DNA of 63,985 nt, filler included, from Stramenopiles sp. TOSAG23-6 (GCA_900128565.1; 5 parts of 5 records of this genome joined end to end with filler, not necessarily neighbours in it), one strand, 5' to 3'; positions 12,901 to 59,378 are shown, counted from the whole stretch's first letter. The notes: generated by a model not told the origin, from the sequence alone. A program made the numbers and translations.

Positions 12901-13000
12901 NNNNNNNNNNNNNNNNNNNNNNNNNNNNNNNNNNNNNNNNNNNNTTAATTAATTAANNNNNNNNNNNNNNNNNNNNNNNNNNNNNNNNNNNNNNNNNNNN
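12901..13000. other. Artificial contig linker
   Basis: 100 nt of N around TTAATTAATTAA (stops in all frames). Confidence 0.95.
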
Positions 13001-19017: not shown

Positions 19018-21596
19018 TTAGAAGACATACATCTGCTGCCACGCCATTTCTCCATGATGTGCATATGTAGCATTTGAATATTTCACAGTGTGAAGGATTC
19101 TTCCAGTAACATCTGGTGGCGCTTCTAGACCGTCTTTAGGGCTACCCCACAAGCACGGTGGCTGAAGTATAAATCCCTTTTCAGAAAACTTTGGATTAAG
19201 GGATGGGTTTCCATAAACAGGTTTTTCTTCACACAACAACGTAGCATTAGTTTCATTACATACTTCTACGCCTTTTGTGTTTTCACTGTAGACCACAGTT
19301 GGAGGACAGAGGTATAAGCTTATACTAAGGCAACTTGGCGCATGACAATGAAAATGGGCTGCAGATAGTCTTGTCGTCTCCACACCTGGTGAAAATGTTC
19401 CAGTGATTTTATGTACCCATATACCTTCCTCTGTTAAAGAACAACCTTCAATACCTTGGCTACACTTTGGTACATCATATTCTACGGGAGATGCGATACC
19501 CCATGTCACTCTCCGGAGTTGTGTATGATATGACTTATCATATGGTTGTACCCAAAACCTAAACTTTAAGTTATATTCTAATGGTTGTGTTGTCCAGGGA
19601 ATATCTTGATCTGCATCTAAAAGAGAAAACATGTGGTGACAAGCAGCTTGTCCACCCGTGTAAGACCGTATATCACAAGTAGGATTTTTCATCGATAGTA
19701 AATCTGATCGTGGCTTTGGAGTGCATTTATTTGGAAATACTATGGTTCCACTACCCACATCAATATTAGGCTGTTTCGAACTTGGTGTATACTTGAGCTC
19801 TCCTTTTGCCGAACCAAAAGGCGGTGGTTTTCCTAGGCAAACACATGTTCCAGCTACTCCTTTTGAATTAACTGGTAGTATCGATATTGTAGAAGGTGTT
19901 TTCATTTTATGATAGCTCAACTTAGCCGTGGAACCAATTGCATTAATAAAGGGTAGTGTAGCTAATAAAGATGATGAAATATCAAAGGTAAAATGATCTT
20001 TTGTTATGCCTTTCATTGCTCGCGTCAGAACAACTGTACACAATCCCTTGTTTACACTTGTTGAAACAACTGTAATGGACGATTGGAGTAAAATACCTGG
20101 ATTTTGATCATGTAATTTTCTTTCTGTGACAACAAAGCCATTAGAATTGTTTATATCATTACTATTTGGTTCAACAATTATGGTCCATGGTGCATCACCC
20201 ATTCTAGATGCGCCAAAACCAACACCAAACCAGACACTAGATGGTCCAGTAAGTGTTATTTGAACAGCTTTGTCGTTTTTAGTTGGATCAATAAAAACTG
20301 ACAAATTTACAAGAGAGGTCGAGTTACCCAAGAATAATTCTTTACCACCGTTAGCGACAAATCCACAGGACGGGGACACTGTATTACTAAAATTATACTT
20401 GACTTGTTTCATTCTAAAGTAAACATGGTATATAATTGAAGTTTCTGAAGTTTTCTCTTCTATTGTGATACTGCATCCAAATGGTTTTGTTACGTCAAAT
20501 CCACTCGAATTTCGAAATTCTTTTGTATTGGCTTTTGAATCACCATTTAGTATATGTTTTGCAGCAGAAAAGCATTCAGTTGGAGTATTAATTACAGTAC
20601 ATCCTTTATTATTCACACAAGTATTGTGAAAAAATATTTCAAAAAAAAATTCGTTAGGTACGAAATTTCGTATGAAAAAAAATTGAAAAAAAAATTCATA
20701 TAAAACATACAAGAAGGACCAGCTGACAAAAGTAAATATTTTCCATGAATCACTTTAGAAATACGTGTAGTCACAGGACATTCAAGTAACCCAGAATATA
20801 AAGCATCTGGGCCTGTTGTTGGAGCCAGATTATTCCGTGGTACTGGACCAGACACAAATGGAGCCGGACCTGAAATAGGCATTTTATCTCTTTCCCAAGT
20901 ATCAATTTGCATTGGTGTAATTTGGAATGAGTGCGGACTTTCAATCACTTGGACAAAACCAGGAGCATATCCATGATATGATAATCGATATTCACCACCA
21001 TTAGCACCACCAAAGTTTTGTTTTGTAGGTAAAGTTGATGGTATCTCATCCTCATTCTTCTCAACTATCCACGCGTGTTTCTCACTTGGTAATCCGTGTC
21101 CACCCATTCTACTGGATTTTATTTCTTGTAATCGTGGATCTTCAGGACTATCAAATTCCGCAAATTTGAATTCATTTTTTGAACCAATCATTACACTCTC
21201 AAAATGGTGATTATAAGCTACAGTTATAGGTACACTCACGTCTGGTTCTCCGTCGAAACCTCTTCGGACCTGGTCCATCTCAAAGCCAATGACTGCCATC
21301 CCCTTGCCAGCATATCGGGCCACAATTTCATCTGGAAGGGAAACAGGAGCTAAACCTTTCCAAAATACTTGCGAATATAAGGACGTGATATTTGGAGAAT
21401 ATATATCAAAATATTCTGCTCCTTTAGGGTATTCACTGAAGGACGTTGGAAATTTACCCGTTGAAGGTGCATGAGGAGTTTGACTCCGCAAGTAAGGTCC
21501 ATTAAGGTTAGGTGCACTAATTGGCTTGAACACATCACCTGAATTCACTTGAGACACGAAGAATCCCAATGTACATAATATAATGCTCATCTGCAT
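19018..21596 (-). CDS. Secreted copper type II monooxygenase-like protein with DOMON-like insert; exons 21596-20711, 20618-19018
   Basis: Signal peptide; YNHH, HFHCH and HGEM metal-ligand-like motifs; WFGVGFGA..M DOMON-like motif. Confidence 0.65.
20619..20710 (-). mobile_element. Introner-family intron (GT...TT; TT duplicated)
   Basis: tt|GTATGT...CACAATACTT|gt joins the two ORFs in frame. Confidence 0.85.
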
Positions 21597-21697
21597 TACA
21601 AATGGCGCCTAAAGAATTTGAATAGAAATTTCGAAATTACCGGTTTATATCGCTCCATTTTTACAGGAGCGAGCGCGATCTGATCTTTTTAGGAAAT

Positions 21698-23279
21698 TTA
21701 CTCAGAGATCCTAAATTTCCCATTACGTATGTATTTTGGAAAAATATTTCAAAAAAAAATCGTTAGGTACGAATTTTCGTACGAAAAATAAATTCGAAAT
21801 TGAAAAAAAAATTCAAAATACATATCTTTTTCTAATTCACAAACACAACGTAACAAACTAGCGCGTAATTTTACAGAAGCGATATTTTCTAGCCGTTTTA
21901 TAGCATTTGAAGAATTTTCACTGCAAAATTTTATATGGATATCGTCTGGATCTAAATTGTCTGGGGCACACTCTCTCCAGGTAAGTGTTCCATTTGTAGA
22001 AACGAGTATATTTCCACTACCATCACATAATTTCCCGTTCCAACTGGCTTCTATAATAAACTCAAATAAAACTATTTGTTTTCCTTTTCTTGAGGCAAAT
22101 TCTGCTGTACCTTCCAATTTCTCAATTTTTGTGACTGATATTTGACTAGGGTTAGGGCTTGATATATTACAAATTTTTTTTCTTAATGTCTGAATAGCCC
22201 ATTTTGTGATATCGGCATTTTCCCAATGAAAACTTCTTTCATTCCACTGACTTCCATGTATTGGAAAAAAATATTTGTTTTTTTGTTTTGTAAAATATTT
22301 TGTTAGGTACAAAATTTACTATGAAAAAAAAATAATTTGAAATTTAATTTTGAAAATGTACAAGCTGAAATGATTTTTCTGTTTTTTCTGTTTTTTCTGT
22401 TGGGGAAATTTGAGATATTTTGGTTGCAAAAAGTGGAGATGGATTTATTAATTTACTTGCAGCGGATTCAGCCGAATGAGCAGCTACAAAAGCTTTATTT
22501 TCTATCGAAATTGTAGAGATTTTATCACCAATGTCTTGAGAATTTTCAGGTGGAGTTGGTGGTAATAGGGTTAGGGTTTTCTTTTGTTTAATGGTAGTCG
22601 GATTAGGATTACTTTTTTGTTTCACTGTTTTTTTCAAAGGAAGGAGAGCGGCTTTTCGTTCTGTTTCCATTGAGGACACACCAAGGATTTCTGCTTCCTG
22701 TTGACGTATTTTTTCTTCAATTGCTAATTTTTCTTTACCTTTTAACTGTATTGCTTCATCTGTTTTTTTTTTTGCTTCAATGCGACGACTTTTGTCTGCT
22801 ATTATTGCAGCATGATCATTACCAATACTCATTAAACGTTTGAGAAAATTTCTGACCGCCGCGTAAATTGCACGTCTTCCTTTATCTCGCATGAGTGTAG
22901 CAGCTGGTCCAGAGTCACCAGATATATGAACTTCAAATTCGTCATCTTCAACATCTTCAGGGACAATTGAAGGTATATCAACTGTGCCTTTACTTTTTTT
23001 CTTGGTTAACTTTGAGTATCCTTCCCATCGCAACTGGGCTTCAAACTCAAATATTGCAATTTTTTTCCCTCGGCGAATGTTGACTGCTGAATCACCGCGT
23101 ACGTATCTAACCTCCTTTATGTGACACGTCGCGTCGCCACAGTCAATTGAAATAGACTTGAAAAGGTGTTCAAGAAGTTGTATAGAGAACTTTGTATGAT
23201 TTGTTTCTTCCCAGTGGTACGAATTTGGATTCCACAATGAACCAACACCTCTACTATTTCCAAGAACTTTGGACGCCAT
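21698..23279 (-). CDS. Hsp90 activator Aha1 N-domain protein with two Aha1_N domains; exons 23279-22362, 22255-21822, 21728-21698
   Basis: GSLWNPNSYHWEE...RRGKKIAIFE and GSQWNERSFHWE...RKGKQIVLFE. Confidence 0.8.
21729..21821 (-). mobile_element. Introner-family intron (GT...AT) with 8-bp perfect TIR
   Basis: at|GTATTTTG...CAAAATAC AT; full core. Confidence 0.85.
22256..22361 (-). mobile_element. Introner-family intron (GT...AT)
   Basis: ctt|GTACAT...CCAATACAT|gga restores L-GSQWN. Confidence 0.8.
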
Positions 23280-23735
23280 TTTACATTAGTTATATTAAAG
23301 AATAAAGAGGGAAATGTTACAATGAATATACAATAGAAATAAACGTATCCTCCAAGTATTTTTTATTGACAGACAGACACAACACAAGCAAAAAATCGAC
23401 AACGGACGACACGGTTCTTTTCAAACAAAAAACGGAAAACCGAGTCAGATGATGACGTGTCATCATCGCGTTGTTGTGGCGCCATCGCCGCCATATTCGA
23501 TTCCTATAGATGATTCTTCTTCCAGTCTTCCACGGGTCATGAATCACCAGAAAATATTTTATGCATATTTTATAGATGATTATTTGGTCTAGAGATTAGA
23601 TTCAATTCAATAACCCAATTGACCATATCTCATTTTGCTTCATCTAGACAAAAAAAAGCAAAAAGTATTGCTTCGAAATATATTGAGAACTGAGAGTATT
23701 ATAGTTATAGGAAGGAAATATTCCACGTAATATAG

Positions 23736-25158
23736 ATGGTTGACTCAAAAAAAGTAGTTCCACCGGTAGATTTTGAAGTGGCTTGGGATAAATCCTCTTG
23801 GGACCCTGCCTGTCAATGTTGCGGCTACCCATTAGTTCTATTACCACCTGAAGAATCATTTAATGATCGATTCCGCGCTCTTCGGAAGTTTGTCCAGGCT
23901 GGCTCTTTGAAAGATTCAACGAGTGGGAATAATGGGACTGTAGAGCATAACGCAACACGGAGTGATTCTGATGATATGATACATTCTTTGACTTATGATA
24001 GCAAGAGTTCCTTGAGTGCTCTGTGTAGCCTGGCAAGGTTTTGTTCTCCATTAGCAAGTGATCCCGTGGAATGTCAACCTTTGTGTGCTCGCTGCAGTAT
24101 GAATTCAGAAGAAAGAGTAAAAAAAGAGTTGGAAGAAGTTCTTGCTGAGCGTGATTTATATCTAAACTTTATGAAATCTTTGGAGAAAGTAGATATCAGT
24201 GATAACAGTTCAACTATATGTAATATAGCAAAGGCATCGAACGAAAAAACAAAAACAAAGTCTCGGGAATTTTCTTCTTTCTCTCTGGCGGAACTTCGAC
24301 TCGAATTGGAACGAATGAAAAAAGAAGTGTCACAAGTAACGCTACAAGTAGAGAAAACTGAAAATGAATTAAGAATAGAAAAATTAAAGACAAAAAAACT
24401 AAAAATATCATCCAGAAAATATTGGGAAAAAACAGGCAACTGGGAACTTCAATTGGATTGTGATACCCAAGAGTTGAGGTCACTGGTACTTCAGGAGCAA
24501 CGCCTGGATGAAAAATTATTACAACTTAAAAGAACGAATGTAAATAATGATGCTTTTTATATATGGCATTCGGGTCCATTTGGTACAATTAACACATTCA
24601 GATTAGGTAGGCTTCCGACACAACTTGTGGATTTTGCTGAAATTAATGCGGCTTGGGGTCAGGCAGCTGTACTAATGACAACTATTGCTAAAAGTCATTT
24701 GAATTTTAAATTTAGCAAATTTAGAATTATACCAAAAGGATCGTATTCTAGAGTGAGTCGTATTGGTGATGAGCGTAACTACAATCCTCTATATTGGGAT
24801 GGTGGTTGGCGTGGTAAAAGTGCATATAATCGAGGAATGTTTGTTTTCATTAACCCTAACCCTAATTAATTGTGTACTTCATTTGAGTGTACTAAGAAAA
24901 TTTTGTATCTAACAATTTTTTTTTTAAAGTTTTTTTTCACCATACATGGTTGCTTTTCTTGCCTGTCTTGATGAACTTGGTCGATATGCGGCACGTGTTG
25001 ATCGTACCATTCATATGCCGTATCAAATTAAGGATTATAAAATAGGAGGCTACTCAATTCAATTAGGTGACTGGCAAAAATGGACTTTTGCGTTAAAATA
25101 TTTACTTACTAATTTAAAGTGGCTTGTTGCATGGACTTCAAAGGCGAATAATGAGTAA
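23736..25158 (+). CDS. ATG6: Beclin-1/Atg6; exons 23736-24838, 24948-25158
   Basis: TNVNNDAFYIWHSGPFGTINTFRLGRLP; EINAAWGQA; AYNRGMVAFLACL after splicing; WTFALKYLLTNLKW. Confidence 0.95.
24839..24947 (+). mobile_element. Introner-family intron (GT...AT), diverged, contains TAACCC repeats
   Basis: gga at|GTTTGT...TATCTAAC...CCATACAT|g gtt; no AG near the junction. Confidence 0.85.
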
Positions 25159-25367
25159 TGTTTTTTTGTTGGGTATTACATTTTGGTACAAAAAAAAATA
25201 AAGTCCTTGATTCAGAGTATTGGATACATTTTTTTCGTACTACAGCTAGTAATAATATTTCGATAACATACATAAAGTACAAAATTTTGTCATAAATTTA
25301 TCATTCAATTGTATCAAAGTGTTGCAAAATCTGTATATATCTCCACTGCACACTCCTAAAAGTAATC

Positions 25368-25811
25368 TTAGCGACCAACACTATACAACTCACCTGGGAG
25401 AAGTGGCCGAGCTGCAGTATCAGCAGACTCAAAACGACCTGGCAACGTCCGAGGTAAATTTTGTATGTCACCTCTTTTATCCATTACAACACCATTTATA
25501 TCTGTATTTTGTCCCTCATTCTCAATTTCATGTTTGAGTTGCGTTTCAACTATCTCAATTTTCTTTTCAATAATTTTTAGCGCAGAGAGAACCACTTCAG
25601 ATGGTGTCAAAGCACCTGTTACTTCTACTGTAAAAATAAATCGTTCTGGCACAGTTCTAATCTTGACACAATCTTCTAACTCAGGATCACCAGATTCCTG
25701 ACGAAGATCATTATGAAAGGTATCTAAGTCGTTACAGTATGTCACAGCGAATTTATCACGCACAACAACTTTTCCAGCAGAATTTAGCTCCAAAACTTTA
25801 GTGGAGAAAGC
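25368..25811 (-). CDS. RPB3: RNA polymerase subunit RPB3-like, last exon (5' partial)
   Basis: PERFIFTVEVTGALTPSEVVLSALKIIEKK; RPAC40 paralogue not excluded. Confidence 0.75.
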   Translation of the reverse strand, partial: AFSTKVLELNSAGKVVVRDKFAVTYCNDLDTFHNDLRQESGDPELEDCVKIRTVPERFIFTVEVTGALTPSEVVLSALKIIEKKIEIVETQLKHEIENEGQNTDINGVVMDKRGDIQNLPRTLPGRFESADTAARPLLPGELYSVGR

Positions 25812-25871
25812 ATGTATTGTGAAAAAATAGTACAAGATTTTTGTTATTAGGTACAAAATTTCGTACGAAAA
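25812..25871 (-). mobile_element. Introner-family intron, 3' part (...AT), truncated by contig end
   Basis: Core TTTCGTACGAAATTTTGTACCTAA and CACAATACAT on minus strand. Confidence 0.85.
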
Positions 25872-25971
25872 NNNNNNNNNNNNNNNNNNNNNNNNNNNNN
25901 NNNNNNNNNNNNNNNTTAATTAATTAANNNNNNNNNNNNNNNNNNNNNNNNNNNNNNNNNNNNNNNNNNNN
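25872..25971. other. Artificial contig linker
   Basis: 100 nt N/TTAATTAATTAA. Confidence 0.95.
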
Positions 25972-25975
25972 ATTA

Positions 25976-28062
25976 CTACGTAGGTAATAGTGGACGTGGT
26001 GAATTTCTCAATTTAAATTCTTCCCATGATGGAGGTGGTGGCGTTTCTGGTGGTTCAACATCATTTAAACAATCTGAATTTTCTGTACTATTTCGTTTTC
26101 TTTTGATATTACCAAATACATTATTGCCACCTTGTCCTGGAGAGTGACATTCTTGTCCAGTAGAATCATCAGTAATACTACATTGTGTTGTTATACTTGG
26201 ATCAATTATCGTTCTTTTTGTATTTTTCCCTATTTTTTTGTTAAGTTTATCAATTTCAAATTTACGATCGTGTAAACAAACAGAAAAGACTCGAGATATA
26301 TTCTTCATTCGTTCACGTCTCATTCCAACTTTTCCAAGTTGTTGTTTTTTCCGATTCAACAGAGAAAGTTTGTAAAATCCAAAAGAAATTAGTACAAGAA
26401 CAAAAAGGACACTTCCAAGATATGGTAAATATTTTGTAAATTTTGGTTTCCAAGGTTTTTCAACAGGATGTATATACGTAACTTTATCAGCATTAGTATA
26501 TTGAATACTTTGAANTTTAAAAGGATTTGAAGTCATTAATTCAAATGGCTTTGGTAATTTACGAGCAGCTATTTGTATTTTTTTACTAAATACATTTTGC
26601 ATTTGAGTAACAGAAGGCATTTCGATTTCAGTATTTTGTTGTTGATTGTTTTTTTCAGCCAACCAATGAATAATTACATGTATCTGGAGACAATTGGATG
26701 GTATCGTAGAACCTCGACGTTCACCACAAATAAGTCCTTGTTTTACTTCTATTTTTATTTCATCGCTATAATAGAAAATATCGGATTGAGATTTGTGAAC
26801 TAAACGACGATTATGTACTGTACTATCCATTTGATGAATATTTTCATCATTCCATTTTTCATTATACATGAATACATCTGAAGCAAAGTTTTCAAGTGGT
26901 TTATACACTGCTTTTTTGTCATATTGTTGATTAAAACTGATAATAAATAGAGATTGGGCAACATCATGTCGTTCTGAAAGACTGATTTTACTGTCACATG
27001 TATCACCAGTGTAACCTAAATAACATTTACAAAAATCGCCATAGTCTCCTGCACACTTGCCATGGTGATTACAAAAAGATAATGTTTGACAGTTTTCTTG
27101 ATAAACACTTTCATCACATCGAATACCTTTCCATAATTTCAAATCATGACATTCACAAGAAGCAATATTATCTTTGATGACACATTTTCCATATTCACTG
27201 CATTCTACATCATCACAAGACTTTTCACAACCTACACCAAAATAATTTGGTGGACATGAACAAAAACATCCACCTACTTTACCTTTAACCTCTCCACCGT
27301 TAAGACAAAGTATAGCATCACTTTCACAGTCTTTTTTGTGTTTACAATTATCTCCATCATAATCATCAGTACATTTACATATACACTTGTCATCTTTTTC
27401 GATAGGTGTACCATGAATACTACATGATAATGTATTCATGTCAGTAGTACATTCATCACATTGTTTACCACCAAAACCATTAGTACATTTACATACACAC
27501 TTATCTTCTTTTTCGATAGGTGTACCATGTATACTACATGATAACGTGTCATTAGTACATTTATCACATTGTTTACCACCAAAATTATCAGTACATTTAC
27601 ATATACATTCATCTTTCACACCTTGTACAACACCATGATCACCACAACTTGACGCATCATTTCTACAACATTTCATTTTGTTAAACATTTCAATTTTTTG
27701 AAGAGAATTGAATAAATTCTTGAGTGGCAAATCTTTCTTTGTATACTCTACTATAAAAAACTCGAGTGGCAAATATTTGTTTTGATATTTTTGGAAAAAT
27801 CCCTGACAATTTTCTTTTCTAAAAAGAGGCAAACTCTTTGAACAAAATTCTATGTTGTCATCATTAGCATTGAGTTTTGAAAAATGTTGACAACAAGAAG
27901 TATTTCCAAGAAGATCAATTGTTTTACAATCCGTATTTCCATTTGAAATTATTCTCTCCATACAAAACTTATTTTTAACCAATTCAAACATATTATAATA
28001 TTTCTTTCGCATGCTTTCATTACATACTTTACCTACAACACTTAAATCACAACACGAACGGA
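25976..28062 (-). CDS. EGF-like repeat single-pass membrane protein (5' end missing)
   Basis: Multiple C.C...(F/Y).G..C EGF units, TM YLPYLGSVLFVLVLISFGFY. Confidence 0.85.
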
Positions 28063-28155
28063 GTGTATTTTGGAAAAATATTTCAAAAAAAAATCGTTAG
28101 GTACAAAATTGCGTACGAAAAAAAAACTTCGAATTTGAAAAAAAATAAAACATAC
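28063..28155 (-). mobile_element. Introner-family copy at a probable chimeric junction
   Basis: Full consensus, but flanks CC/AC and phases are incompatible; joins two unrelated genes. Confidence 0.85.
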
Positions 28156-29425
28156 GGTAAAACAGTTGTACTAAATAAGGAAGATATTGGCACAGTAGCA
28201 CCAACACTTGCAAAAAATATAGACGCAAGCCAATTTGCAATTTCAGCGACCCGACTTTCCCAAATATTTTGTATACCACTAACTGAAGCGAATGCGACAC
28301 CAGTAAAGAAAATTCCTAATAAATAAGTTGATCCTGCATATCCAGAAATAGCTGACATTCCAAATCCAGATAAAAAAAGAAAACTTAATAAAACTTCATT
28401 GTAACCTAACTTACACAACTCAAAAATATGTTTTAAAAAGTCCTTTTTCTTTATTGACTGATTGATTTCATTTTCTTTAGTTGATTTCGATATTTCATCA
28501 AAATTTTCATTTATTTGACTTTGTTTTGTTTTTTTTGTTTTTTTTGTTTTTTTTGTTTCTGTGTTTGACTCTATTAGAGGTGGTGTATCATGAATAAATT
28601 CCTTATTTTGTTTTTTTGTCTCCATTGCTACTGATGTATGGCAACTCAACCCATTTGATACATTATCGTGGAACACCAAATGAAAGTGCAACCATGGCAT
28701 TATAAGAGACACTACTTTGCTCAAGAGTACAAAACAGACAAAGACTCCAATGGAAGCAACAATCGGACGTGTGCAAACAAAAGCTACATTTTTATCTGTA
28801 TTATCTATGTCACTGATATTTGAAATCACTGCAATGATTATAAGCGATAAAACATCATCGATTATCGCAGCAACCGATATTAGACTACCTAATTCGGAAT
28901 TCAATTCTTTTGCATCTCTAAGAAGGCGCGTGGCTATACCTATTGAAGTACTCGAGATACAAGTACCTCCAACGATTGACGCGCGGAACGGATAGCCGAA
29001 TGAATATTATGTGTACATTATATCAACTATGTTGCAAATAAATAAGATGAGATATTACAAAATGAATGACTTTGAAAGTATTGCTTGTAGTATATACAAA
29101 ATATTAACAAGGTCAATAATCCTAATCCCAAGGGAACTACTGTGCCAGTTACAGCAATAAGACAAGACCTCACCCCTGCTTTCTTTAACTTGGAAGTGTT
29201 GACACTTAAACCACCTTCTAGAACAAGAAGGCTTAATCCAAGTTGACCAACAGTATTTGTGGTATTCATATCTATAATCCAATCTAGTGCATATGGACCA
29301 AGAACAGCTCCAGCAACTATTTCTCCAACCATCACTGATTTCAAAGGCGCCAAGAAAATACCAAAAGCCCAGACAGTTGAAAGGAAAATTCCAAGTAGCA
29401 TAAGGTTATCAAGAGAACTCGACAT
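28156..29425 (-). CDS. CPA2-family cation/H+ antiporter (3' end missing); exons 29425-29098, ~29005-28156
   Basis: VGEIVAGAVLGP, LLVLEGGL, SSTSIGIA, AAIIDDVLSL, LGIFFTG, FFASVG motifs. Confidence 0.85.
29006..29097 (-). other. Non-canonical intron without family core (GT...AT, or GT...TT ending at 29003)
   Basis: Needed to join TM segments; using the only nearby AG gives an in-frame TAA. Confidence 0.55.
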
Positions 29426-29723
29426 TGTTCTTACAAAGCAATAAAACAAACACGAAACATGCTAAAGGATATGATAGACACGACAGGAAAAATCAATCAT
29501 CATCGAGACATTAGCAGAGAATATTCATTCAATATTATTTTGTCGTCGACGGTCGCGATTGCGTCGCGATTCGAGAATCGAGATGATCGGAGATTTTGAT
29601 CATAAAAAAAACTCCCGATTTTCGATTGATGGATTGTTGTTTGTTTAACTTTTGTTGTTGATTATTTTATAATATAAGTATTTTATCAATTATTTCCACC
29701 AATTATCATCAAGTAGTAGTAGG

Positions 29724-30911
29724 ATGCTGGTGCATCGAAATTTAGCACGTTGTTTGAGAGACAATTCCTCTTTTTTCAGAGCGTCATCATCTGCGGTGCA
29801 TGATTCAGCCCAAATTGTTGCCGCTGTCCCCTTACGGGCTCTCGTTTCACATCTTACACAGCTTTGTGGCTCTGATATTGACGAGTCTTGCCGTATTGCT
29901 GAAAATCTTGTGATGTCAAACCTTAAGGGTCACGACTCTCATGGTGTAGGCTATTTACCTCGCTATATACGCACAGCATTAAAATCAAACTTAGTACCAA
30001 ATCAAAGTGTAAAGATTATAGGAGAAAGCGACACAATGATTTCGCTTGATGGAGGTCGTGGATATGGACAGTCAGTTGGCAAGGAGGCTATGAAGCTTGG
30101 TATTCAAAAGGCACGTGAGCATAAAATGTGTATAGTATCACTTAGAAATTCACATCATCTAGCAAGGATTGGTGCTTGGGCTGAAATGTGCACAGCTGCC
30201 GGTTTTATGTCGCTGCATTTCGTCAATGTAGCTGGACACGAACCGCTTGTTGCCCCTCATAATGGTGGAGAAGCAAAGCTTGGAACGAATCCTATATGTA
30301 TTGGTTTTCCAGACCTGACAGATAAAGCAGACAATGTCAAAAGGTGTGACATTATTCTAGATTATGCAACTAGTCAAGTTGCATTGGGTAAAGTACGTGA
30401 AGCATATGGGAGAGGAGAGTTGATGCCTCAAGGTTGCTTATTAGATCACAGTGGAAGAGAAACAAAAGATCCAAGTGTCAAGTTTTGTGAAAAGAAGGGT
30501 TCTTTACTACCATTTGGTGACCATAAAGGCTACGCATTAGCGCTAATGTGCGAATTAATTGGAGCAGTTGCAACTGGTGGTCAAACAATTGCACCTGAGT
30601 GGGAGCGCGATGATACTATTATTAATTCAATGTTTACTGTAATTATTGATCCATCAAGAACGTCCACCTCAGAAGCACCACAGTTAGCCTCCGAAACAGA
30701 GCAATTAATGTCGTATGTCACTGCTGCAGAGAGAAGACCAGGGAGTTCCGATGATGTCATGATTCCTGGTGAACCCGAGAGAAATATGTACGAGAAGAGA
30801 ATAATGGATGGCATACCCATTAGCGAAGGTACGTGGTCTGAGATTCTTCATGCTGCTTCATCGTTAGGAGTTTCAGAAGCTGATGTTCATTCAATATTGA
30901 AACAGAATTGA
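29724..30911 (+). CDS. Ldh_2-family (malate/L-lactate/hydroxycarboxylate) dehydrogenase with N-terminal transit-like peptide
   Basis: GHDSHGVG, SHHLARIG, LGTNPICIG, LDYATS, FGDHKGYAL, IPGEPE. Confidence 0.9.
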   Translation: MLVHRNLARCLRDNSSFFRASSSAVHDSAQIVAAVPLRALVSHLTQLCGSDIDESCRIAENLVMSNLKGHDSHGVGYLPRYIRTALKSNLVPNQSVKIIGESDTMISLDGGRGYGQSVGKEAMKLGIQKAREHKMCIVSLRNSHHLARIGAWAEMCTAAGFMSLHFVNVAGHEPLVAPHNGGEAKLGTNPICIGFPDLTDKADNVKRCDIILDYATSQVALGKVREAYGRGELMPQGCLLDHSGRETKDPSVKFCEKKGSLLPFGDHKGYALALMCELIGAVATGGQTIAPEWERDDTIINSMFTVIIDPSRTSTSEAPQLASETEQLMSYVTAAERRPGSSDDVMIPGEPERNMYEKRIMDGIPISEGTWSEILHAASSLGVSEADVHSILKQN

Positions 30912-31363
30912 CGTCATAGTACGTACAATAATCTTATTGATTTTCAACGATAAATATAATTAAGTTACCTAATTCATCATGTTGAACTGTTTAGCCTTGG
31001 TCACAAGAATTTTTTTTGAATATTTTTTAGTTTTTTTTTTAGAATTACGTTCGTGTTCGATCAGCTTGGAAGTGTGCGATTTTATAAAGAGATAGACGTC
31101 AGGTATATATAAAGGTACAAAAGAAGGTGTTTAAGCATAACTTTATATTAGAATAAACGCCGCTTCAACCATTAATTTTACTTGATGTTGTACCTTTTGT
31201 GGTAGTGTTTTACAGACATTATTAGTATCTTAATATTTAGACACGAAATTTCGAAAAAAAACAAAGACACAAGTCAGTAGTCAGTCAGTTCGTAATAGAT
31301 ACTACTACCTTCTAATTCTAATAGGTGTAACTACAGAGCTATTCAACTGACGATACTGATGTA

Positions 31364-33078
31364 ATGACTGATTTGCTTGTTAAAACGAATGCACGACATG
31401 CAATCTTAATTGAGCCGTTTGGTGGAGGTTCACATCAGCAGTTTGTAGATCTCTTAGCTAAAACTTACAACTCCCCGAGTTCTTGTCATTCTTTAGATAT
31501 TTTTACTCTTCCAGGTAAAAAATGGCACTGGCGGTTGTTGGTATCAGCGGCCCATTTCGCAACGATAATTCCTAACCCATCAAAAAACAATACTACTTCA
31601 TTATTTGCGAGCTCAATGCTGAATTTGTGTGAACTTCTTGGAATGCGTCCCGATTTATCGAGTTTACATAAGGTATATTATTTCCATGAAAACCAGCTGA
31701 CTTATCCAAGTCGCCAAAAAGATGCTGCGGGTCAACGTGACTGGGCTCTTGGGTGGAATCAAATTGTTTCTTCTCTCGTTGCGGATGTGGTGTTATTTAA
31801 TTCTTCCTATAATCGTAAATGTTTTTTAGATAACATACCTCGTATATTATCACGTATACCAAAAGACTGTCGTCCTTCAAATGTTGTTGAACGCATCCAA
31901 GCTAAATCCGATGTTCTCTTTTTCCCATTGCATATGTCCCCATCTACACCTTTAGTAGATGTTAAACCTTTACATCATTTATCTAAAGGTGCTACTATTG
32001 TTTCATTGGATACAACCGATGAAAAAAAAAATTCCGATAGAAAAAACAACTCAATTGAAAATAAGTTACTTTTACCAAATAACCTCAATAGAAAAATCAA
32101 TGTAGTTGAAAATTACACCTCACGTTCTTCTGACACATTTGGTACAACGTTACCTTTACATATTGTATGGGCCCACCGCTGGGAATTCGACAAAAATCCA
32201 GATTTATTATTCCGCGTGCTTCTTGAATTAAAAGATAAAGGATGTATGTTTTTATCATTAATTTCCAAATTTAGTTTTTTTTTTCGTACGAAATTTCGTA
32301 CCTAACAAAAAAATTTACTAAAAAAAAATATTTTCCTACAATACATGTAACTTTAAGATCTCAATTCTTGGAGAAAGTTTTAAAGAGACCCCTGAAATAT
32401 TCAAAAGTGCAAGAGAAAAACTTAATAATCATGTTTTACATTGGGGGTATCTACCTTCTCGAAAGGAATATTTAAATGTGCTTCGGGATGCTGACGTGGC
32501 ACTATCTACTGCAGATCACGAATTTTTTGGTGTAAGTACACTAGAATGTGCTTGGCAAGGATGTACGTTTTATATGAATTTCTAATTTTTTTTTTTTTTT
32601 TGATTTTCATACGAAATTTCGTACCTAACAATTTTTTTTTGTAATTTTTTTTTCCCACAAGACATGTTTCCCGGTTTGTCCAAATAGACTTTCGTATCCA
32701 GACTTTTTCCCCAAAGAATGTCTTTATAACACTGAAAGACAACTGGTAAGAAAATTGAAAGATTTTTGTAATTATCCCAGTCGATTGCGTGATAGGGTGT
32801 ACGTGTATACTATAAAAAAAAAATGTACCATATTTTATTAACCCTAACCCTAATAAAGAAATGAAATGTTTGACATATTTTTTTTATAATACAGGCGTGA
32901 GATACTTCATGGTGTTAAGCTTCGACGCTTCCACTGGGATGAATTAAAAGAAAGGTTTGATGTGTATTTATTCCCCCCAGCTGAAAAAAAAAGAAGGAAA
33001 AAAGATAGTAAAGGAAAACGAAAAAGAGAGGTTGAAAAAGAAATCCCAGTTGTTGACCCTAACCCTAACAAGAAATAA
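31364..33078 (+). CDS. GTDC1: GTDC1/QTMAN-like glycosyltransferase; exons 31364-32243, 32347-32562, 32666-32798, 32895-33078
   Basis: EPFGGGSHQQ, LPGKKWHWR, YFHENQLTYP, HRWEFDKNP, HEFFGVS.LE. Confidence 0.9.
32244..32346 (+). mobile_element. Introner-family intron (GT...AT)
   Basis: Restores LKDKGCNFKISILGE. Confidence 0.9.
32563..32665 (+). mobile_element. Introner-family intron (GT...AT)
   Basis: Restores GCFPVCPNRLSYP; AG at 32660-61 is out of frame. Confidence 0.9.
32799..32894 (+). other. Diverged family-like intron with canonical GT...AG
   Basis: GTACGT...ATAATACAG; core lost, TAACCCTAACCCTAA inside; frame restored. Confidence 0.75.
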
Positions 33079-33261
33079 CAGTTGTTGACATCACCTCAAA
33101 AAAAAAAACCTACAAGGATACAAAAATACTCAAATAATAAAAAACTAAACCAAATTCTGTACATAACGAATAATAGTATACTATAAATAATAATAATAAT
33201 AATAATATGCACTATATATTTCGTATTATGCTCTGTTTTACACTTTTCCAAAGACACTAAT

Positions 33262-33416
33262 GTTTGTGATATCTTTTCAATTTCGATTTTTTTTCGTACG
33301 AAATTTCGTACCTAACGATTTTTTTTTCAAATATTTTGTGATATCTTTTCAATTTCGATTTTTTTTCGTACGAAACCAGTTTTTTTTGGTAAAATTTCGT
33401 GTTTTTCACAATACGA
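33262..33416 (+). mobile_element. Introner-family copy with internal 41-bp duplication, antisense to and overlapping the PhzF stop
   Basis: GTTTGT...TTTCGTACGAAATTTCGTACCTAAC...CACAATAC; 33263-33303 repeated at 33335-33375. Confidence 0.8.
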
Positions 33417-34506
33417 GATCCCCAGAAAAAACTAAAGCAGTGCTTCCAGTGACAGACAGAAATTTACCACAAATTTCCAAGAATAAATCCCCACCCCTGG
33501 CAGAACGTATTTTGGAAAAATATTTGAAAAAAAAAATCGTTAGGTACAAAATTTCGTACGAAAAAAAATTCGTGAAAAAAAATAAAACGTACACATTGCC
33601 TTGCATGTAGAGTTTTTACGTTTAATTGAAGACTCCAGTATGGAGCTAAAACTGTATGGGCGCTTCCAGTCACTGGGTCTTCATTGATACCTACCCAGGG
33701 TGCAAAATATCTTGAATAAAAATTATGTATTTTGGAAAAATATTTGAAAAAAAAAATTCGTTAGGTACAAAATTTCGTATGAAACAAAATAAAATTTGAA
33801 AAAAAATAAAACATACATATTTTCCATTTCCTCGTAGAGTTATAATTAGACCTTTTACACCGTCACTACCTTTTGTCGCGGCTAATAAATCAGAAATGTT
33901 TGGCTTCAAATCTTCAAGTTCCTTTCGACTAAACGTATCATCAAGACGAAGTAAAAGTTTCTTAGTTGTCTGAGAATACTGAACGTCTACCAAGTGTGAC
34001 AATATGTTTGGACATATATTTGAACCTAGAGCCTTTGCAAGTCTCTTCACCAAGATATTTTCGAGTGTGTATCGAGTTGATGACGTTGGTGCATTGACTG
34101 GGAGTTCCATACAAACAGTCTGATATCCACTATCCACTGGACCAATAGAAGCAAATAGACTGCCTGCGCCTTGGGTTGTCTCAAACTCGATCTTTTGATT
34201 TTTATTTCCTTTTTGGTAAAATATCACAGAAGCAGTCGCCATAGTTGCATGGCCACATAAAGCAACTTCACACATTGGAGTGAACCACCTCAAGCGAAAT
34301 TTCCGACCCGAGCTAAAATCAACTCCTTCTACTATTTGAACAAACGCAGTTTCTGATAAGTTCATTTCTTGAGCAATCTTCAAAAGAACGTCATCACTGG
34401 GCTGAACTCCAGGTGCCAATAAACATACAGCAGCCGGATTACCAGCAAATGGGGCTTCGGCGAAAGCGTCCACCTGATAAAGCGGAATTGTACTCAGTAA
34501 TGCCAT
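33406..34506 (-). CDS. PhzF/PBLD-family isomerase; exons 34506-33817, 33724-33593, 33504-33406
   Basis: VDAFAEAPFAGNPAAVC, EMNLSETAF, LRWFTP.CEVALCGHAT, SRYFAPWVGINEDPVTGSAH, QCSARGG. Confidence 0.95.
33505..33592 (-). mobile_element. Introner-family intron (GT...GT; GT duplicated)
   Basis: tgt|GTACGT...AAAATACGT|tct restores ARQCSARGG. Confidence 0.9.
33725..33816 (-). mobile_element. Introner-family intron (GT...AT)
   Basis: Restores Y|NFYSRYFAPW. Confidence 0.9.
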
Positions 34507-34819
34507 GCAAATTTTCGAAACTCTACGTCTTTTTCGAAAAGTTATCAGATATTATCATATTCTTATGACGATTATGACAGGGTGTCAGGGTCTCCAAACT
34601 TTTTGACTGCCCAGGAATCACGGCACGACCCAACAATAATCGCTTAGGGTTAGGGTTAGCTTGAGCGATCGCGAAATATTTCTCCGACACTCGTGACGAA
34701 CTAATCATTGATAACGTGGTGTACTAATATTATTGAAATGAACCTAACGTTTTCTCCTGATTAACTCTCTATTTGCGGCTCAGTATTTTCTCACTGAAAT
34801 CATAGATTATAGTGTTCAA

Positions 34820-37733
34820 ATGTCTGAATTTAATAAAAGAAAACGTAGGAGACGAATGGCTTCCTTTAGACCTACGTCGTCAGTTGGTGATCTAGATGAA
34901 GATGTCAGTATAAGTTCAACTCCTGTGGAAGCTCCAATAACAGTACCAAAATCTGATATGCCGAAATTTAAAAAACGTTCACGTAAAAAGGGTAAGAAAA
35001 GCAACAGCAATTTTAGAAGTAGTAGTACAAATCACAATACTTTGATCAATAGTAGAGGTATGAGCCTCTGCACAGATGAGCTGGAAGGTGAAGAGACATC
35101 CGTCTTCAAAGTTAAAAAGTCTAAAGTATCACGTGCGCTGCATCGAAAAAAAACAAAGAACAGTAGTACACGAAAAACAAAAGAAGCTTCTACTCTACTA
35201 CGTAAAGAGGAAGTATCGATAAATAGTACCAATCGTACAATAAGTGGTGGGGGGAATTACTCTGTGGAGTCTCTTGCAAAACTTCGTAAGCAGCAACAGT
35301 ACAAAACAATAAATGTCACGAAGGACCAATCGGAACAGTACAGTCTTGAAGATGATGCACAGTTACCCGGTGATGATATATCATTAGCAAAGCCGCTCTT
35401 CGATGCTGGTAAGATTCGACAAGCAAAGCTACAAAGAGCTCATCAGCGGAATACAAAAGAAGGGTCGCTAGAAAAAGGAAGTGATTTCGTGTTACTTGGC
35501 CAACGTGATGGTCAACGTGATGACTCTGTATTAGTCACTGGTGACGACAATGTAAATGTAGGAAGACATTCCAAATTGAGACCGACTGATTTTTCTACCG
35601 AACGAATCAATAAGACGTCTACAAAGCTTAGTGTTGATGACATAGATAATATTTCTTCTACTGTAGCTACTGGTCAAACGCAAAGTGTGTGGGAGCAACA
35701 GCAGATACAGCGTGCACTCAAAGCTAGTTTTGGTAAAGTTTCGAATACATTTCAAAGTAAAAACAACAATAACCCTACGATGACTGTACGTCCCATGAGT
35801 GAATATTCAAGTAGTGATTTATCTACCCTTCGTACAACTGTAGAAATAATACAAATTCTCAAGACTCAATTACGAGCAGTAGAAAGTATTCAATACCAAT
35901 CTGAACAAAAATTGATTGAAATGGAAGAAAGATCTGTAGAAGCAAAAAAATCAGCTAAATCAATAGAAAAACAAATAGATATTTTATCAAATGAGTATGT
36001 AGGTTTGATTTTTTTTTAATTTTTTATCTAATTTTTTTTTTCATACGAAATTTCATACCTAACAAATTTTACAAAACAAAAATATTATTCTTTAGTACAT
36101 GTTTTTTTACAAAAGTTTGCCGATTATGGGAAAACTCTAGTTGGTTGTGTACGAGATAAATTACCAAAAGTCGATCAGTTAGAGCAAGCAATTTATCAAC
36201 TACGAATTGATGCTACAAACAAAGTACAAACCTGTATTAAAAATGTCACAGAAGAAATGCCAAATAATCCGAGAATCATGTATGTTTTATTTTTTTCAAT
36301 TCCGAATTTATTTTTTTCAAAAAATTGTGTACCTAACAAATTTTAGTCGTTTTTTTTGAAATATTTTTCCAAAATACATTTCATCCATTGAAGTATGTAA
36401 ATTATGGCTTACGAATAGTACAATGCATCCGAGAGAATCTATGAGTTTTTTAATGAATGCATTAAAATCGATTGATAAATTATCATGTGGTTTTGATAGA
36501 AGTGGATTTAGCATTCAATTTGGTTGTCCAAACTTTCGATGTATTTCATCTGAAGGAAAGTTTACAGTAAATGCGATTTTACCATTTGAACAATCTATAT
36601 ATGATTCTATCGAAGAAAGAAGGAAAAGTGCACTTGAAGCAGCATCTTTGGTATTTTCAGATGTAGATGAAAAATCAAATTGTAAGTCTTTACAACAAGT
36701 TGTTGAAAGATTTCGTAAAATTCGTATAACATCCCCTGAAGCCTATGGTCAAGCGTACGTAGCGTTTTCAATGCCTCAATTAATATCTATATGGGCAAAG
36801 TTAGAGGTACTTTCTACATGGGATCCACTTATATTGAAGCCATTGGAACCTGTTTCATCCTTTGGTCCTCAACCCCCACCATCTGACGAATCTTTAAATG
36901 ACAAATTATATGATGATGATATGGGTGTGATTGGATTCCAACAGTTTTTGTGGTGGAAGGATTTGTATAGCTACAATCATATCTTTACTGAGGGTGCTAG
37001 AGATGATTATGATATTGGCGAGGCTGAGGAGAAACTTCTTCCTTTTCTTGTTGAATATTCCATTGTACCATGTTTGCTTCATTCTATTGAGCATTGTTGG
37101 GCTCCAAATAAAAGTAATCGCCAAACGAAAAGCGTTGTTGATAATATAAATGAAGTTGGATTGTATAGACCAATGAGTCATAATAAAGAACGCCAATATA
37201 GGAATCCAACGTCGTCATCACAAACACTACCATGGAAGCCATTCACAATGCTCTGTGATGCAGTAATCCAACGTCTTGAGTATTGCATTAGTTTACTTCA
37301 ACCACCTTCTGAAATAAATACTATTTCGGGACAAGTTAGTGAAAAATTCACATTGAATATATTTGAAATGTTATGCTTATATTTATCAATTTGCCGATGT
37401 AACAAGATTAAAGATGTTTCAATCAAAGGAAGATTAGCGAACATTGCCATTAGGAGTGTTTTGAAAGGGTTTATAATTCCAATGTTGAAAAAGATAAAGT
37501 CAAATATTGAAACCTATAACGTAAGCGGATGGGGTATAACAGCGATACTATCCATATGTCAAGTTCTAGCTAATGTAACGCCAAGATCATGGATACAAGA
37601 TCGTTCTCATCAGTACCAACAAGAAGCTCCTGGAATTGTTTCATTTCGAGCTTTTGTTCAAAATATATATTCTGCGACAAATTATGATCAACAAACGCGC
37701 ATGAAAATATTGGAAAAATTATCAAAGAAATAA
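34820..37733 (+). CDS. GCFC2/PAXBP1-like protein; exons 34820-35998, 36101-36279, 36380-37733
   Basis: WEQQQIQRA; YVFLQKFADY...GCVRDKLP.VDQLE; VFSDV...RF......EAYGQAY...S.PQL......L....WDPL. Confidence 0.75.
35999..36100 (+). mobile_element. Introner-family intron (GT...AT)
   Basis: tat|GTAGGT...TACCTAAC...AGTACAT|gtt; a GT-AG variant 36003-36095 is also in frame. Confidence 0.75.
36280..36379 (+). mobile_element. Introner-family intron (GT...AT)
   Basis: at|GTATGT...AAAATACAT|t; frame restored. Confidence 0.85.
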
Positions 37734-37869
37734 AAACAATATGGAGTGTAATGTATTATAATTGACAAATAAAGCTTTTTAATTACTAAAAAAGTGTTTC
37801 AATCTTATTTCTCCAAAAAAGTCGAGTATATAGCTTATATACGTGTAATGAGAGTAATATGTTTTTCAT

Positions 37870-38780
37870 TTAAATCCTAACAATTTCAACACGAGTTCGC
37901 GATGAAATTTGGTGTGTCTTGGCTTCACTTTCTGTTTGGTTGTCTTTATCTTCCAGCTTAAGTGGCTGAATCACAATGCGAGCATATGTTCCAGGAGCAC
38001 ATTTTCTGCAAAGTGTCCCAGCATTCACAGCAATTGTATTCGCACCTCCCGTTGCAGCACTAGGCATTGCATCAGCAAAGAAATTGAGCTGTGATCGTAG
38101 TAATAAAATATCAGGAGAACATGGCAAAGTTGCATGACGTAATAACGCCAAGTCGAGAGGAAATCCTTGTTTTGGTGGGAAAATTGGGTACATACTACGC
38201 TGGTTGATACAGTTTGCTGCAAGAATCATTGGCTTCTTTGGCCGTTTTGCATTCTTTGCAGCTGCTTGAGCTGCCCAGCGGTAACAGTCTCGACCAAGTT
38301 GATGCCCAATAATGTCATGACTACCAAGTATTGTGAAAAAATATTTCTACAAAAAAATCGTTAGGTACGAAATTTCGTATGAAAAAAAAAATTAAATTGG
38401 AAATTCATATAAAACGTACAACTGTCATGGTGACGTCTCCAATTTTCAGCGTTGAGGGATTTGGTACGGACATAATCTGTCCATTATTTGTGAAATCACT
38501 ACCCAATTCATCGGTGAAGAAGCGCGAAGAAAATGCTGGTTGTGGAAATACTGGTGTATGGTGTGCATCTTGTATAGACGGAACTAACACAATTTTACTT
38601 TTAAGATCTAAATGTGACATTTCCACCAACATTTTAAGAATAACTTGCTCAGTAAAGAGTTGGTCGTAAGTTACATCCTTCATTGCTGTGCTACCTGTCT
38701 GTTTCTTCTCTAGATCTGGAATACGAAGTCTTCCACTTTTTACCATAGGGTGATTTAAATCAACAAATGGACCTTGGAGT
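37870..38780 (-). CDS. POLA2: DNA polymerase alpha subunit B (5' partial); exons 38780-38420, 38325-37870
   Basis: GPFVD..H, LVPSIQDAHHTPVFPQP, PNPSTL, QRSMYPIFPP, PDILLL.S.L..F, VNAG.L. Confidence 0.9.
38326..38419 (-). mobile_element. Introner-family intron (GT...TT; TT duplicated)
   Basis: gtt|GTACGT...CACAATACTT|ggt; frame restored. Confidence 0.85.
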
Positions 38781-38838
38781 ATGTATTTTGGGAAAATATT
38801 TTCAATTTTTTTGTTAGGTACAAACTTTCGTACGAAAA
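38781..38838 (-). mobile_element. Introner-family intron, 3' part (...AT), truncated by contig end
   Basis: Core plus CCAAAATACAT on minus strand. Confidence 0.85.
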
Positions 38839-38938
38839 NNNNNNNNNNNNNNNNNNNNNNNNNNNNNNNNNNNNNNNNNNNNTTAATTAATTAANNNNNN
38901 NNNNNNNNNNNNNNNNNNNNNNNNNNNNNNNNNNNNNN
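38839..38938. other. Artificial contig linker
   Basis: 100 nt N/TTAATTAATTAA. Confidence 0.95.
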
Positions 38939-56595: not shown

Positions 56596-56891
56596 CTAAA
56601 CACCCGCGCTTCCAATGGATCAGAGCAAACGGGGGGAAATACCGACTACGGGTGGAACGTATCGTGTTTAGCAAAGATTGATGATGAATTCGGACAAGTT
56701 CTTCTTCGAGAGCGACATATCGACGACACAATTCATTTGATTTGATGGCGATCGATGGCGATGGCCTCTCGATCTTTAAAACACGAAATAATCAACATTT
56801 TTAATGAATGACCAAAAATCAATGCGTATTTAAAAATCTCGTTTATTTTATGGGTTTTTTTCACACTCACTCCTTCAATACCTATAAAAGT

Positions 56892-57778: not shown

Positions 57779-58140
57779 TTTTATGAATGTTGTTCAATTT
57801 TTGAAACAAAATATAATATATCGTATATTTTTCAAAAATATATACGTTCTAATCTTATAAATCGATCGACGTATCAAAAAGAGTGGCTAAGGTGCAATAG
57901 AATGTCAAATTGAAATTGACAAAAAACGAAACAAAAACTTTGCACACAAATATAAATTTTTGAGTAAAACCCAGAGGAGGAGCGGAAATTTAAAAAGTAT
58001 GATACCCGGTACTGGTACGAGTCGCCGGAAAAACTCCGATAAGGATGCCTATACGTAGCATATCATAGCCACAGTGTGTATACCCTACTAATTCCGTTAT
58101 TGACACAACTCTTCCACTCTTTCTTTGGTGTTGAAATCAA

Positions 58141-59277: not shown

Positions 59278-59378
59278 AAACATAGTAATTTCATTACTTT
59301 TGTAAAATCCTTATTATTTTATCTGTTATAAATAATGATATTATTAAATCATGTTTTCGAACTTCTACAACAATGATA

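Follow-up and report, generated by a model that had tools for sequence, protein, structure and literature searches.

What supplies the last two bases of an intron when they are not the AG that is near-universal at 3' splice sites and ranks among the most conserved signals of eukaryotes? The question is raised by a stretch of 63,985 nucleotides from Stramenopiles sp. TOSAG23-6 (GCA_900128565.1), referred to here as the window, in which a short non-coding repeat that begins with GTAY and ends with AATAC interrupts many unrelated genes and is followed by a dinucleotide that varies between loci. A first-pass annotation had described the repeat as a miniature inverted-repeat transposable element (MITE) with a 2-bp target-site duplication (TSD), one copy of which becomes the splice acceptor. 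As a whole explanation we consider it probable, if well short of certain, that the repeat is an introner-like family of GT-NT introns with a 2-nt target duplication, to which the U1 small nuclear RNA (snRNA) of the host is matched.

The window joins five unrelated contigs through N linkers, and nothing about neighbourhood is deduced across the gaps. It is eukaryotic DNA of 34% GC, with frames that include Beclin/APG6, Aha1, a DNA polymerase B subunit, kinases, and CFAP43. The assembly comprises 21.1 Mb in 6,236 contigs, some of them redundant or inverted duplicates, and it appears to be fragmented at copies of the family because six contig ends in the window fall inside them. In a quick tree of the spliceosome protein Prp8, the host is placed, with weak support, among environmental sequences on the stramenopile side.

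Two sets of copies were counted. The window set was curated by hand, with doubtful ends placed by frame consistency, and holds 28 complete copies rather than the 31 reported earlier; six copies cut by contig ends, a tandem copy that is not an intron (33262-33371), and a copy at 50028 with a duplication and an ambiguous acceptor were left aside. The wider set comes from a sample of less than 4% of the assembly, biased toward long contigs, in which 802,783 scanned bases gave 293 profile hits, 271 had the core and both candidate ends, 128 of these passed the donor and acceptor scores and ended in AC, and 123 were left after duplicate removal. Boundaries were called without regard to the flanking dinucleotides, and one of the called ends is known to be wrong. 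On non-redundant DNA the profile gave 280 hits in 777,504 bases, or 0.36 per kb, which extrapolates to about 7,600 copies. The RNA data are assembled contigs from three runs that contain part of the window, all of them seawater metatranscriptomes. Unless the window is named, counts refer to the 123 copies.

The repeated intron and its target dinucleotide

Read on the gene strand, a copy opens with the donor GTAYGTTTT and closes with the 3' motif TTTTTC[AC][AC]AATAC and two variable bases; between them lies CRTACGAAATTTYGTACCTAAC, with a T-rich spacer on either side. The whole is mostly 86-110 nt long. The branch box of the family is TACCTAAC. Where the branch A could be located, its distance from the 3' end is almost always 32-48 nt and is bimodally distributed, with peaks at 34-35 and 43-44, about 10 nt apart. 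Similar intron sequences sit at many unrelated loci, the property by which introners are recognized; copies in the top-scoring pairs share 92-96% identity, no two being identical, and their flanks differ. The termini had been described as GTAT and ATAC, but many donors read GTAC instead, and two linked subtypes are visible, with CAAAATAC ends accompanying GTAT donors (34 of 40) and ACAATAC ends accompanying GTAC (29 of 45). The predicted folding of one copy was not unusual (z = -0.28). Among metagenome contigs there was one exact match to the core, in a copy (L113) that lies in frame and has AT on both sides, and the viral contigs searched gave no match.

The dinucleotide that follows the element tends to repeat the last two bases of the upstream exon. 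In the window this holds for 21 of 28 copies, against 15.5 expected by shuffling (P = 0.0013); the count of 21 agrees with the first-pass annotation, whose coordinates also proved right for TT/TT (exon end/acceptor) at 20619-20710 and 38326-38419, for GT/GT at 33505-33592, and for 8-bp inverted ends at 21729-21821. In the genome sample of about 0.8 Mb, 84 copies match where 60.5 ± 3.0 are expected. AT/AT pairs alone are uninformative, given that AT is its own complement and is favoured at both ends, so that the signal resides in the non-AT pairs: three in the window (0.54 expected, P = 0.006) and 14 in the sample (TT 9, GT 4, AA 1; 2.2 expected). In 20,000 shuffles, neither 84 matches in total nor 14 non-AT matches was ever attained. 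The same is seen outside the window, where 68 of 102 copies match and 11 do so with a non-AT pair, against 1.8 expected. Both within the window and beyond it the non-AT matches are locus-specific, as they should be if the terminal dinucleotide is provided by the target and not by the element.

The repeat is exactly two bases long, spanning 2 nt in 71 of 105 copies, 3 nt in one, and 4-6 nt in none. Position -2 matches 93 times where 73 are expected, in line with the covariation that had been proposed as a check. The match rate is higher near the consensus (49 of 62 high-scoring copies, 35 of 61 low-scoring ones), as would be expected of a duplication that decays. A locus-specific match is what an introner survey, in its available text, takes as the mark of a TSD (bioRxiv 10.1101/2022.06.06.494994), and this family displays it; a locus-specific repeat of fixed length further points to a staggered cut in DNA. 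That the duplication derives from the target is, in our view, highly likely.

Excision, register, and the host U1 snRNA

Removal of the element together with one copy of the dinucleotide restores the reading frame in 83 of the 89 copies that have clear long frames, and in an amino-acid transporter gene four successive copies, with acceptors AT, AG, AC, and AT, can be removed without a stop. A 151-nt contig from the poly(A) run joins 35996 to 36099, which is the exact removal of the 102 nt at 35999-36100, and a second RNA contig breaks off at 36276, which is the leftmost of the equivalent cuts for 36280-36379 (3-nt ambiguity; 57 letters not shown), and represents a probable junction. The scar-free excision proposed in the first-pass annotation is borne out by these frames and by the first RNA contig, and we regard it as almost certain that the family consists of exactly spliced introns. 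As a separate observation, the summed RNA contig depth over 25972-38838 in the three runs (X1-X3) is in the hundreds to thousands on family copies, compared with 0-6 over exons. The signal of many copies falls on few, and retained or stable intron RNA or carry-over of DNA may contribute to this depth.

The acceptors are AT in 92 copies, TT in 10, GT in eight, AC in six, AG in three, and other dinucleotides in four, so that T occupies the last intron position in 110. The near-constant T at exon -1, noted earlier for 30 of 31 copies, is present in 27 of the 28 in the curated window set. Other exon positions are less uniform, with G at +1 in 68 copies, T at +2 in 48, and C, A, T, and G at -3 in 44, 31, 31, and 17, respectively. 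These introns might instead be spliced as ordinary GT-AG introns at an AG a few bases downstream, at the cost of a few codons. Of 83 copies, 38 do have an in-frame AG between branch +8 and exon +30, and leaky use of such sites is possible; however, the first AG downstream of the branch keeps the frame in 28 of the 83, precisely as chance predicts, the RNA contig joins at AT, and AG acceptor words in the sample are at or below expectation, all of which makes this alternative very improbable. Canonical donor words are likewise barely above expectation (GTAAGT 1.24, AGGTAAG 1.23), against 2.8-3.0 for GTAYGTTT, and, among the non-family frame breaks listed and viewed, the intron-like ones are mostly decayed family members that end in AT where the end is visible. 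One such intron-like break, missed by the profile, lies at 29006-29097 (- strand) in a Na+/H+ exchanger gene; by eye it reads GT...AT, and use of the nearby AG would give a stop.

The machinery that recognizes these introns was sought in the genome. The genes for U5, U2, U1, and U4 form a cluster that is present on two identical contigs, and there is one U6; the branch-pairing box of U2, the U5 loop, and the ACAGAGA box of U6 are standard. The only U1 found, on the other hand, starts with AAACGUACAUGG where the Rfam consensus has AUACUUACCUGG, its 5' end being AAACGUACAUG with the changes U2A, U5G, and C9A. It aligns over all 166 positions of the model, with four stems and the Sm site (E = 3e-13), and its stem-loop II is without part of the consensus U1A loop. 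A second U1, of canonical sequence, was not found: the canonical 12-mer has three exact matches in the genome, and none is a U1 gene.

The start of this U1 is the complement of CAU|GUACGUUU (the bar marks the splice site), that is, of the element donor and the exonic T before it, and it pairs fully with CAU|GUAYGUUU. The host U1 outperforms a consensus-reverted control at 120 of the 123 donors, with mean energies of -9.4 and -2.0 kcal/mol. All three changed bases take part: A9 pairs with exon -1 at 109 donors, G5 with intron +4 at 119 (54 C, 65 as a wobble with U), and A2 with +7 at 121, where the control pairs at 6, 4, and 1, respectively. The preference for AT had been attributed to the transposon; since the changed U1 5' end accounts for both the exonic T and the AT bias through splicing, neither can be used to argue that a transposase prefers such targets. 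The match suggests that U1 and the mobile intron are co-adapted, and we infer that the variant U1 is expressed and functional.

The family shares with U2-type introns a donor complementary to the U1 of its host, though not to the consensus U1, and a branch box that can pair with GUAGUA of U2, the word ACCTAAC being enriched 6.2-fold; the YAG acceptor of that class is missing, since AG occurs in only 3 of 123 copies. U12-type introns are marked by the donor RTATCCTT and the branch TCCTTAAC; their donor and branch words are not enriched in the sample, and no U12 snRNA was matched, an absence that is not proof.

The ends of the intron could also be read in a shifted register, starting two bases earlier and ending at the AC of the element, so that most introns would be AT-AC, with the upstream dinucleotide intronic and the downstream one exonic. 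AT-AC ends are known (available text of PMC11282704), the element closes with a strongly conserved AC, and the RNA junction fits both registers. In contrast, C8 and A7 of the host U1 pair with the GT, which makes a cut before the G likely, and the downstream dinucleotide is more constrained than the upstream one (22 versus 8 discordant pairs, P = 0.016), the latter occurring in 11 kinds; U12 donor words show no excess, and no U12 snRNA was matched. In addition, only the GT register keeps a T in a sulfotransferase and a W in an NSD-type finger, residues that we take to be conserved, where the shifted register gives M. Database comparisons at such junctions were uninformative: the sulfotransferase exon end had no match in PDB, a search for Aha1 homologues returned one distant match, and the NSD alignment begins past the junction residue. 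We consider the shifted register quite improbable and the GT register very probable, with splicing of GT-NT introns by the major (U2) spliceosome.

Of the spliceosome proteins, Prp8, Slu7, Fyv6, Prp4, a Cwc24-like protein, and U2AF65 were found. The alpha-finger of Prp8 is identical to the human one, the equivalent of Q1594 is kept, and its 15 unusual positions are within the range of other sequences (1-32). Prp18, U2AF35 (22 of 40 motif matches examined), and the U1-70K N-terminus were not found in the incomplete assembly, and because three of nine are missing from such an assembly, their absence is uninformative.

Put together, these elements would work as follows. Each copy would carry its own donor GTAYGTTTT, branch box, and 3' motif, but not the last two bases of the intron; it would insert into DNA with a 2-nt staggered duplication, the target dinucleotide becoming both exon end and acceptor; and the U2 spliceosome, cutting ahead of GT and behind the duplicated NT, would leave precisely the original mRNA. 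Surviving insertions would be mainly those at NT targets, and best at (C)AT|G, as A9 of U1 favours T at exon -1. At the other end, U in the last intron position would be the best-tolerated non-G base opposite G+1; in yeast lacking Prp18, U-1 is proposed to pair with G+1, where C or A would clash (available text of PMC10711555).

Weighing the explanation and the route of insertion

Several results weigh against the explanation set out above. As to splicing, six of the 89 strong cases are out of frame; the single definite RNA junction has a depth of 2 and lies at an AT/AT site, so that its register is ambiguous; a codon-position test of the register was non-significant (P = 0.22); a copy with mismatched dinucleotides, on contig C310, runs into a stop when read in the GT register, though in a weak frame of 12 codons; and an earlier [AT]AT lies between branch and acceptor in 121 of 123 copies. 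The U1 is known from its gene sequence, with a score of 54.1 bits that is below the Rfam cut-off of 69.5. The boundary matrices were trained on window copies and required GT and AC, and 123 of the 293 hits entered the counts. As to mobility, the check for empty sites, which had been suggested earlier, compared the joined flanks of the 123 copies with sampled genome DNA and found none, and none was found for metagenome copy L113, whose flanks had no match in the genome among 40 scored candidates. Perfect inverted ends measure 2-4 bp in 118 copies, 5 bp in three, and 7 bp in two; no copy is antisense-only; and the element termini were seen at none of eight inspected transposase loci, although hAT, MULE, CACTA, and other families were not searched and the assembly is incomplete.

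The frequent earlier [AT]AT implies that simple scanning does not explain the choice of acceptor and that context picks the site. Candidates for this context are the fixed 3' motif, pairing between the two ends, and pairing of U1 nt 7-11 with CAU|GU at the acceptor; U1 of fission yeast is said to pair with the 3' AG, for which the literature searched offered no confirmation.

With respect to the inverted ends, the 8 bp reported earlier are real at 21729-21821 but are not the rule, and they are perfect there because this donor is without G+5; if donor +5 is skipped as a bulge, 37 of the 123 copies have inverted ends of 7-8 bp. By orientation, 88 copies are sense to an open frame and 35 are unassigned; the lack of antisense-only copies would also fit an RNA route. 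Some degenerate copies do lie outside long sense frames, and selection in a compact genome could hide antisense or intergenic insertions.

An RNA route would dispense with a target duplication: the exon end and the acceptor would reflect two independent splicing preferences, and copies would spread by reverse splicing and reverse transcription. The orientation, the short inverted ends, and the missing partner transposase fit such a route, as does the exonic T that U1 explains, and element RNA, summed over many copies, is abundant in all three RNA runs. However, reverse splicing copies the end of the donor intron and predicts no match to the exon end, which disfavours it, as a TT acceptor follows a TT exon end in 9 of 10 cases and GT follows GT in 4 of 8, over and above the excess of non-AT matches. 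We rate it as rather improbable.

The matches could also arise if a copy, circular or linear, bearing its parent's dinucleotide recombined at an identical target, through a recombinase or microhomology, with no staggered cut. The top-scoring pair of the sample, 94% identical, is GT/GT in both members, and similarity among the four GT/GT copies exceeds that within random sets (P = 0.009, although their youth confounds the comparison). Yet for seven of the nine TT/TT copies the nearest neighbour is an AT copy, non-AT acceptors common to nearest neighbours number 4 against 1.5 expected (P = 0.09, a weak result), and the genome profile search yielded no tyrosine recombinase; integration of this kind is improbable.

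For insertion at the DNA level with a staggered cut, the reading we prefer, an enzyme would be required. Profile searches of the genome gave ten transposase hits in four DDE families (five DDE_Tnp_4 hits represent two distinct loci), and no HTH_Tnp_4. A PIF/Harbinger-like locus (L076/L100) was rejected as a partner, having its own 28-bp terminal inverted repeats (TIRs) and a TAA duplication; between the transposase and a Myb-like open reading frame (ORF) it does contain 36 nt of the family core. Two DDE_3 loci, one DDE_1, two piggyBac-like, and the other DDE_Tnp_4 locus had no element termini in their sampled flanks. Tc1/mariner elements duplicate TA, which occurs at none of the 123 acceptors. 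Two loci are noteworthy in themselves, namely the apparently intact PIF/Harbinger element, present on four near-identical contigs, and a piggyBac-like ORF between 26-bp inverted repeats that are unrelated to the intron ends. The lone end words, 26 of the 5' and 10 of the 3' kind, revealed no long element with the same termini, such as the first-pass annotation had proposed to search for. Hence, of the earlier description as a MITE with a 2-bp TSD, the duplication is upheld, while inverted ends, orientation, and partner transposase give it little; that a DDE transposase drives the family is close to an even matter, leaning slightly toward doubt.

Copies, significance, and known systems

The copies of the window and the other features are collected in the following table.

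Table 1. Positions of family introns and related features (numbered along the window unless a contig is given; dinucleotides as exon end/acceptor).
Feature	Position	Strand	Remarks
Six complete copies and two halves at a contig join	11755..18351	+	starts 11755, 12355, 12583, 13572, 13757, 18262; 12583-12665 has mismatched dinucleotides
Family intron GTATGTTTT...CACAATAC+TT	20619..20710	-	exon ends TT (non-AT duplication); removal of element+2 fuses open frames of 299 and 532 codons
Family intron	21729..21821	-	close to 3' end of Aha1-like gene; AT/AT; perfect 8-bp inverted ends
Family intron	22256..22361	-	between two Aha1_N domains; TT/AT (mismatch); first exon would end in CTT in the GT register, in CAT in the AT-AC register
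Diverged family intron	24839..24947	+	Beclin/APG6; AT/AT; excision yields ...YNRGMVAFLACLD...
3' half of a copy, truncated by contig end	25814..25871	-	RNA polymerase Rpb3-type gene
Family intron	28063..28155	-	end of Na+/H+ exchanger gene; CC/AC; only copy without T at -1; after removal, stop four codons on
Family intron	32244..32346	+	QTMAN-like gene; AT/AT
Family intron	32563..32665	+	AT/AT
Degenerate tandem core copy without proper ends	33262..33371	+	between convergent genes; not counted
Family intron	33505..33592	-	PhzC/PhzF-like gene; GT/GT (non-AT duplication)
Family intron	33725..33816	-	PhzC/PhzF-like gene; AT/AT
Family intron	35999..36100	+	AT/AT; 102-nt removal in poly(A) RNA contig
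Family intron	36280..36379	+	AT/AT; probable RNA junction
Family intron	38326..38419	-	DNA polymerase B-subunit gene; TT/TT (non-AT duplication)
Further copies	41646-41744, 45735-45835	+	
Five copies in one amino-acid transporter gene		+	starts and acceptors 49049 AT, 49281 AG, 49450 AC, 49715 AT, 50028 ambiguous; 49281-49373 and 49450-49544 have mismatched dinucleotides
Four complete copies	55451..62236	-	starts 55451, 57006, 57166, 62138
Linkers N44-TTAATTAATTAA-N44	12901-13000, 25872-25971, 38839-38938, 51748-51847		join unrelated contigs
U5, U2, U1, U4 genes	L074:1-650 (G000:C1146)		head to tail within 640 bases
PIF/Harbinger element	L100:500-3612 (G000:C2432)		apparently intact
piggyBac-like ORF	L129:86-3379 (G000:C256)		between 26-bp inverted repeats

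Some copies have peculiarities of their own. Two introns of the transporter gene, at 49715-49903 and 50028-50189, contain a tandem duplication inside the element, and the second may end in AG. At 45735-45835, GTAAATTTT opens both the intron and the downstream exon, giving an 11-nt direct repeat over the junction through conversion or chance. Elsewhere in the window, positions 1-1815 hold a gene with Sel1 repeats and a MYND finger, which contains repeats of 108 nt and changes frame at a run of G, and a mitochondrial carrier gene shifts frame at 39313-39359 (- strand) with no intron visible, possibly an assembly error. Short telomere-like CCCTAA repeats are dispersed in genes and within one intron copy (for example at 6712, 11154, 22570, and 24854), and L113 has them as well.

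A broader reading of these data is that in this lineage the code read by the major spliceosome has changed, AG|GT...AG|G giving way to AT|GT...AT|G, with C9A serving both ends if U1 pairs at the acceptor, and with the AG-checking factors (U2AF35, Prp18) lost or altered. Any duplicated (C)AT|G would then serve both as a perfect donor context and as a valid acceptor, so that a single 2-nt-duplicating element could have supplied nearly all introns. We regard this reading as unlikely. In any case, a GT-AT-dominant genome with a rewritten U1 would offer a natural experiment on how AG is enforced and on whether introners reshape or exploit the spliceosome. The natural TT, GT, AC, and AG variants form an allelic series, since the acceptor is copied from the target, and their small size lends the U1 variant and the 90-nt element to direct reporter tests in yeast or cells. 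On the practical side, the usual gene-finding and alignment programs would place splice sites wrongly in most intron-containing genes here, and introner surveys based on annotation could miss the family.

What is new is a changed U1 5' end that reaches exon -1 and is matched to a mobile family with non-AG acceptors; the open literature searched contained no GT-AT-dominated protist genome and no such U1, and subscription papers or survey supplements may list the family. The comparisons that follow draw on the available portions of the cited papers. Closest are the introners, of which Micromonas IE1 (PMC11282704) brings its own donor and takes its acceptor from the target duplication, as does that of Chrysochromulina (bioRxiv 10.1101/2022.06.06.494994; see also PMC12130899). 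The present family resembles them as a high-copy repeat in unrelated genes with its own donor, a duplicated acceptor, and an unchanged mRNA length, whereas their duplications measure 3-4 nt and Micromonas co-opts AG, as against 2 nt and mainly AT, TT, or GT here. Its inverted ends fall into the "ambiguous" class of the introner survey (bioRxiv 10.1101/2022.06.06.494994). A 2-bp AT duplication is shared with ISL2EU of the PHIS superfamily, which targets A|AT|T and has TIRs that usually start with GG (PMC4482050); identity with ISL2EU was rejected in view of the C/A/T-AT-G context, the other dinucleotides, the GTA...TAC ends, and the lack of HTH_Tnp_4.

A U1 that has co-evolved with an atypical donor is described for Entamoeba (AACAAAC) and Mastigamoeba balamuthi (ACGUAC; bioRxiv 10.1101/2022.06.08.495308), and the host U1 combines the G5 of the Mastigamoeba type with an Entamoeba-type A before it. 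The changes in those two face intronic positions, while C9A faces exon -1; that feature, non-AG acceptors, and a mobile family do not appear in the portions of those accounts at hand. As for the acceptor, HAU is among the most frequent non-canonical acceptors activated in yeast without Prp18, with U-1 the preferred non-G base and poly(U) tracts helping, as they might in the U-rich element (PMC10711555); what is a mutant error class in yeast is the norm here. Finally, the MITE-derived introns of Fritillaria borealis also depart from the AG rule throughout the genome, include AT in their range of 3' ends, bear TSD and TIR marks, and depend on a U2-type spliceosome (PMC11282704; PMC13326754). In that species, however, the donor is AG, the U1 5' end is reported to be strictly preserved, and the change lies in U2AF paralogues and m6A (PMC13326754), whereas in the present host the donor is GT and it is U1 that has changed.

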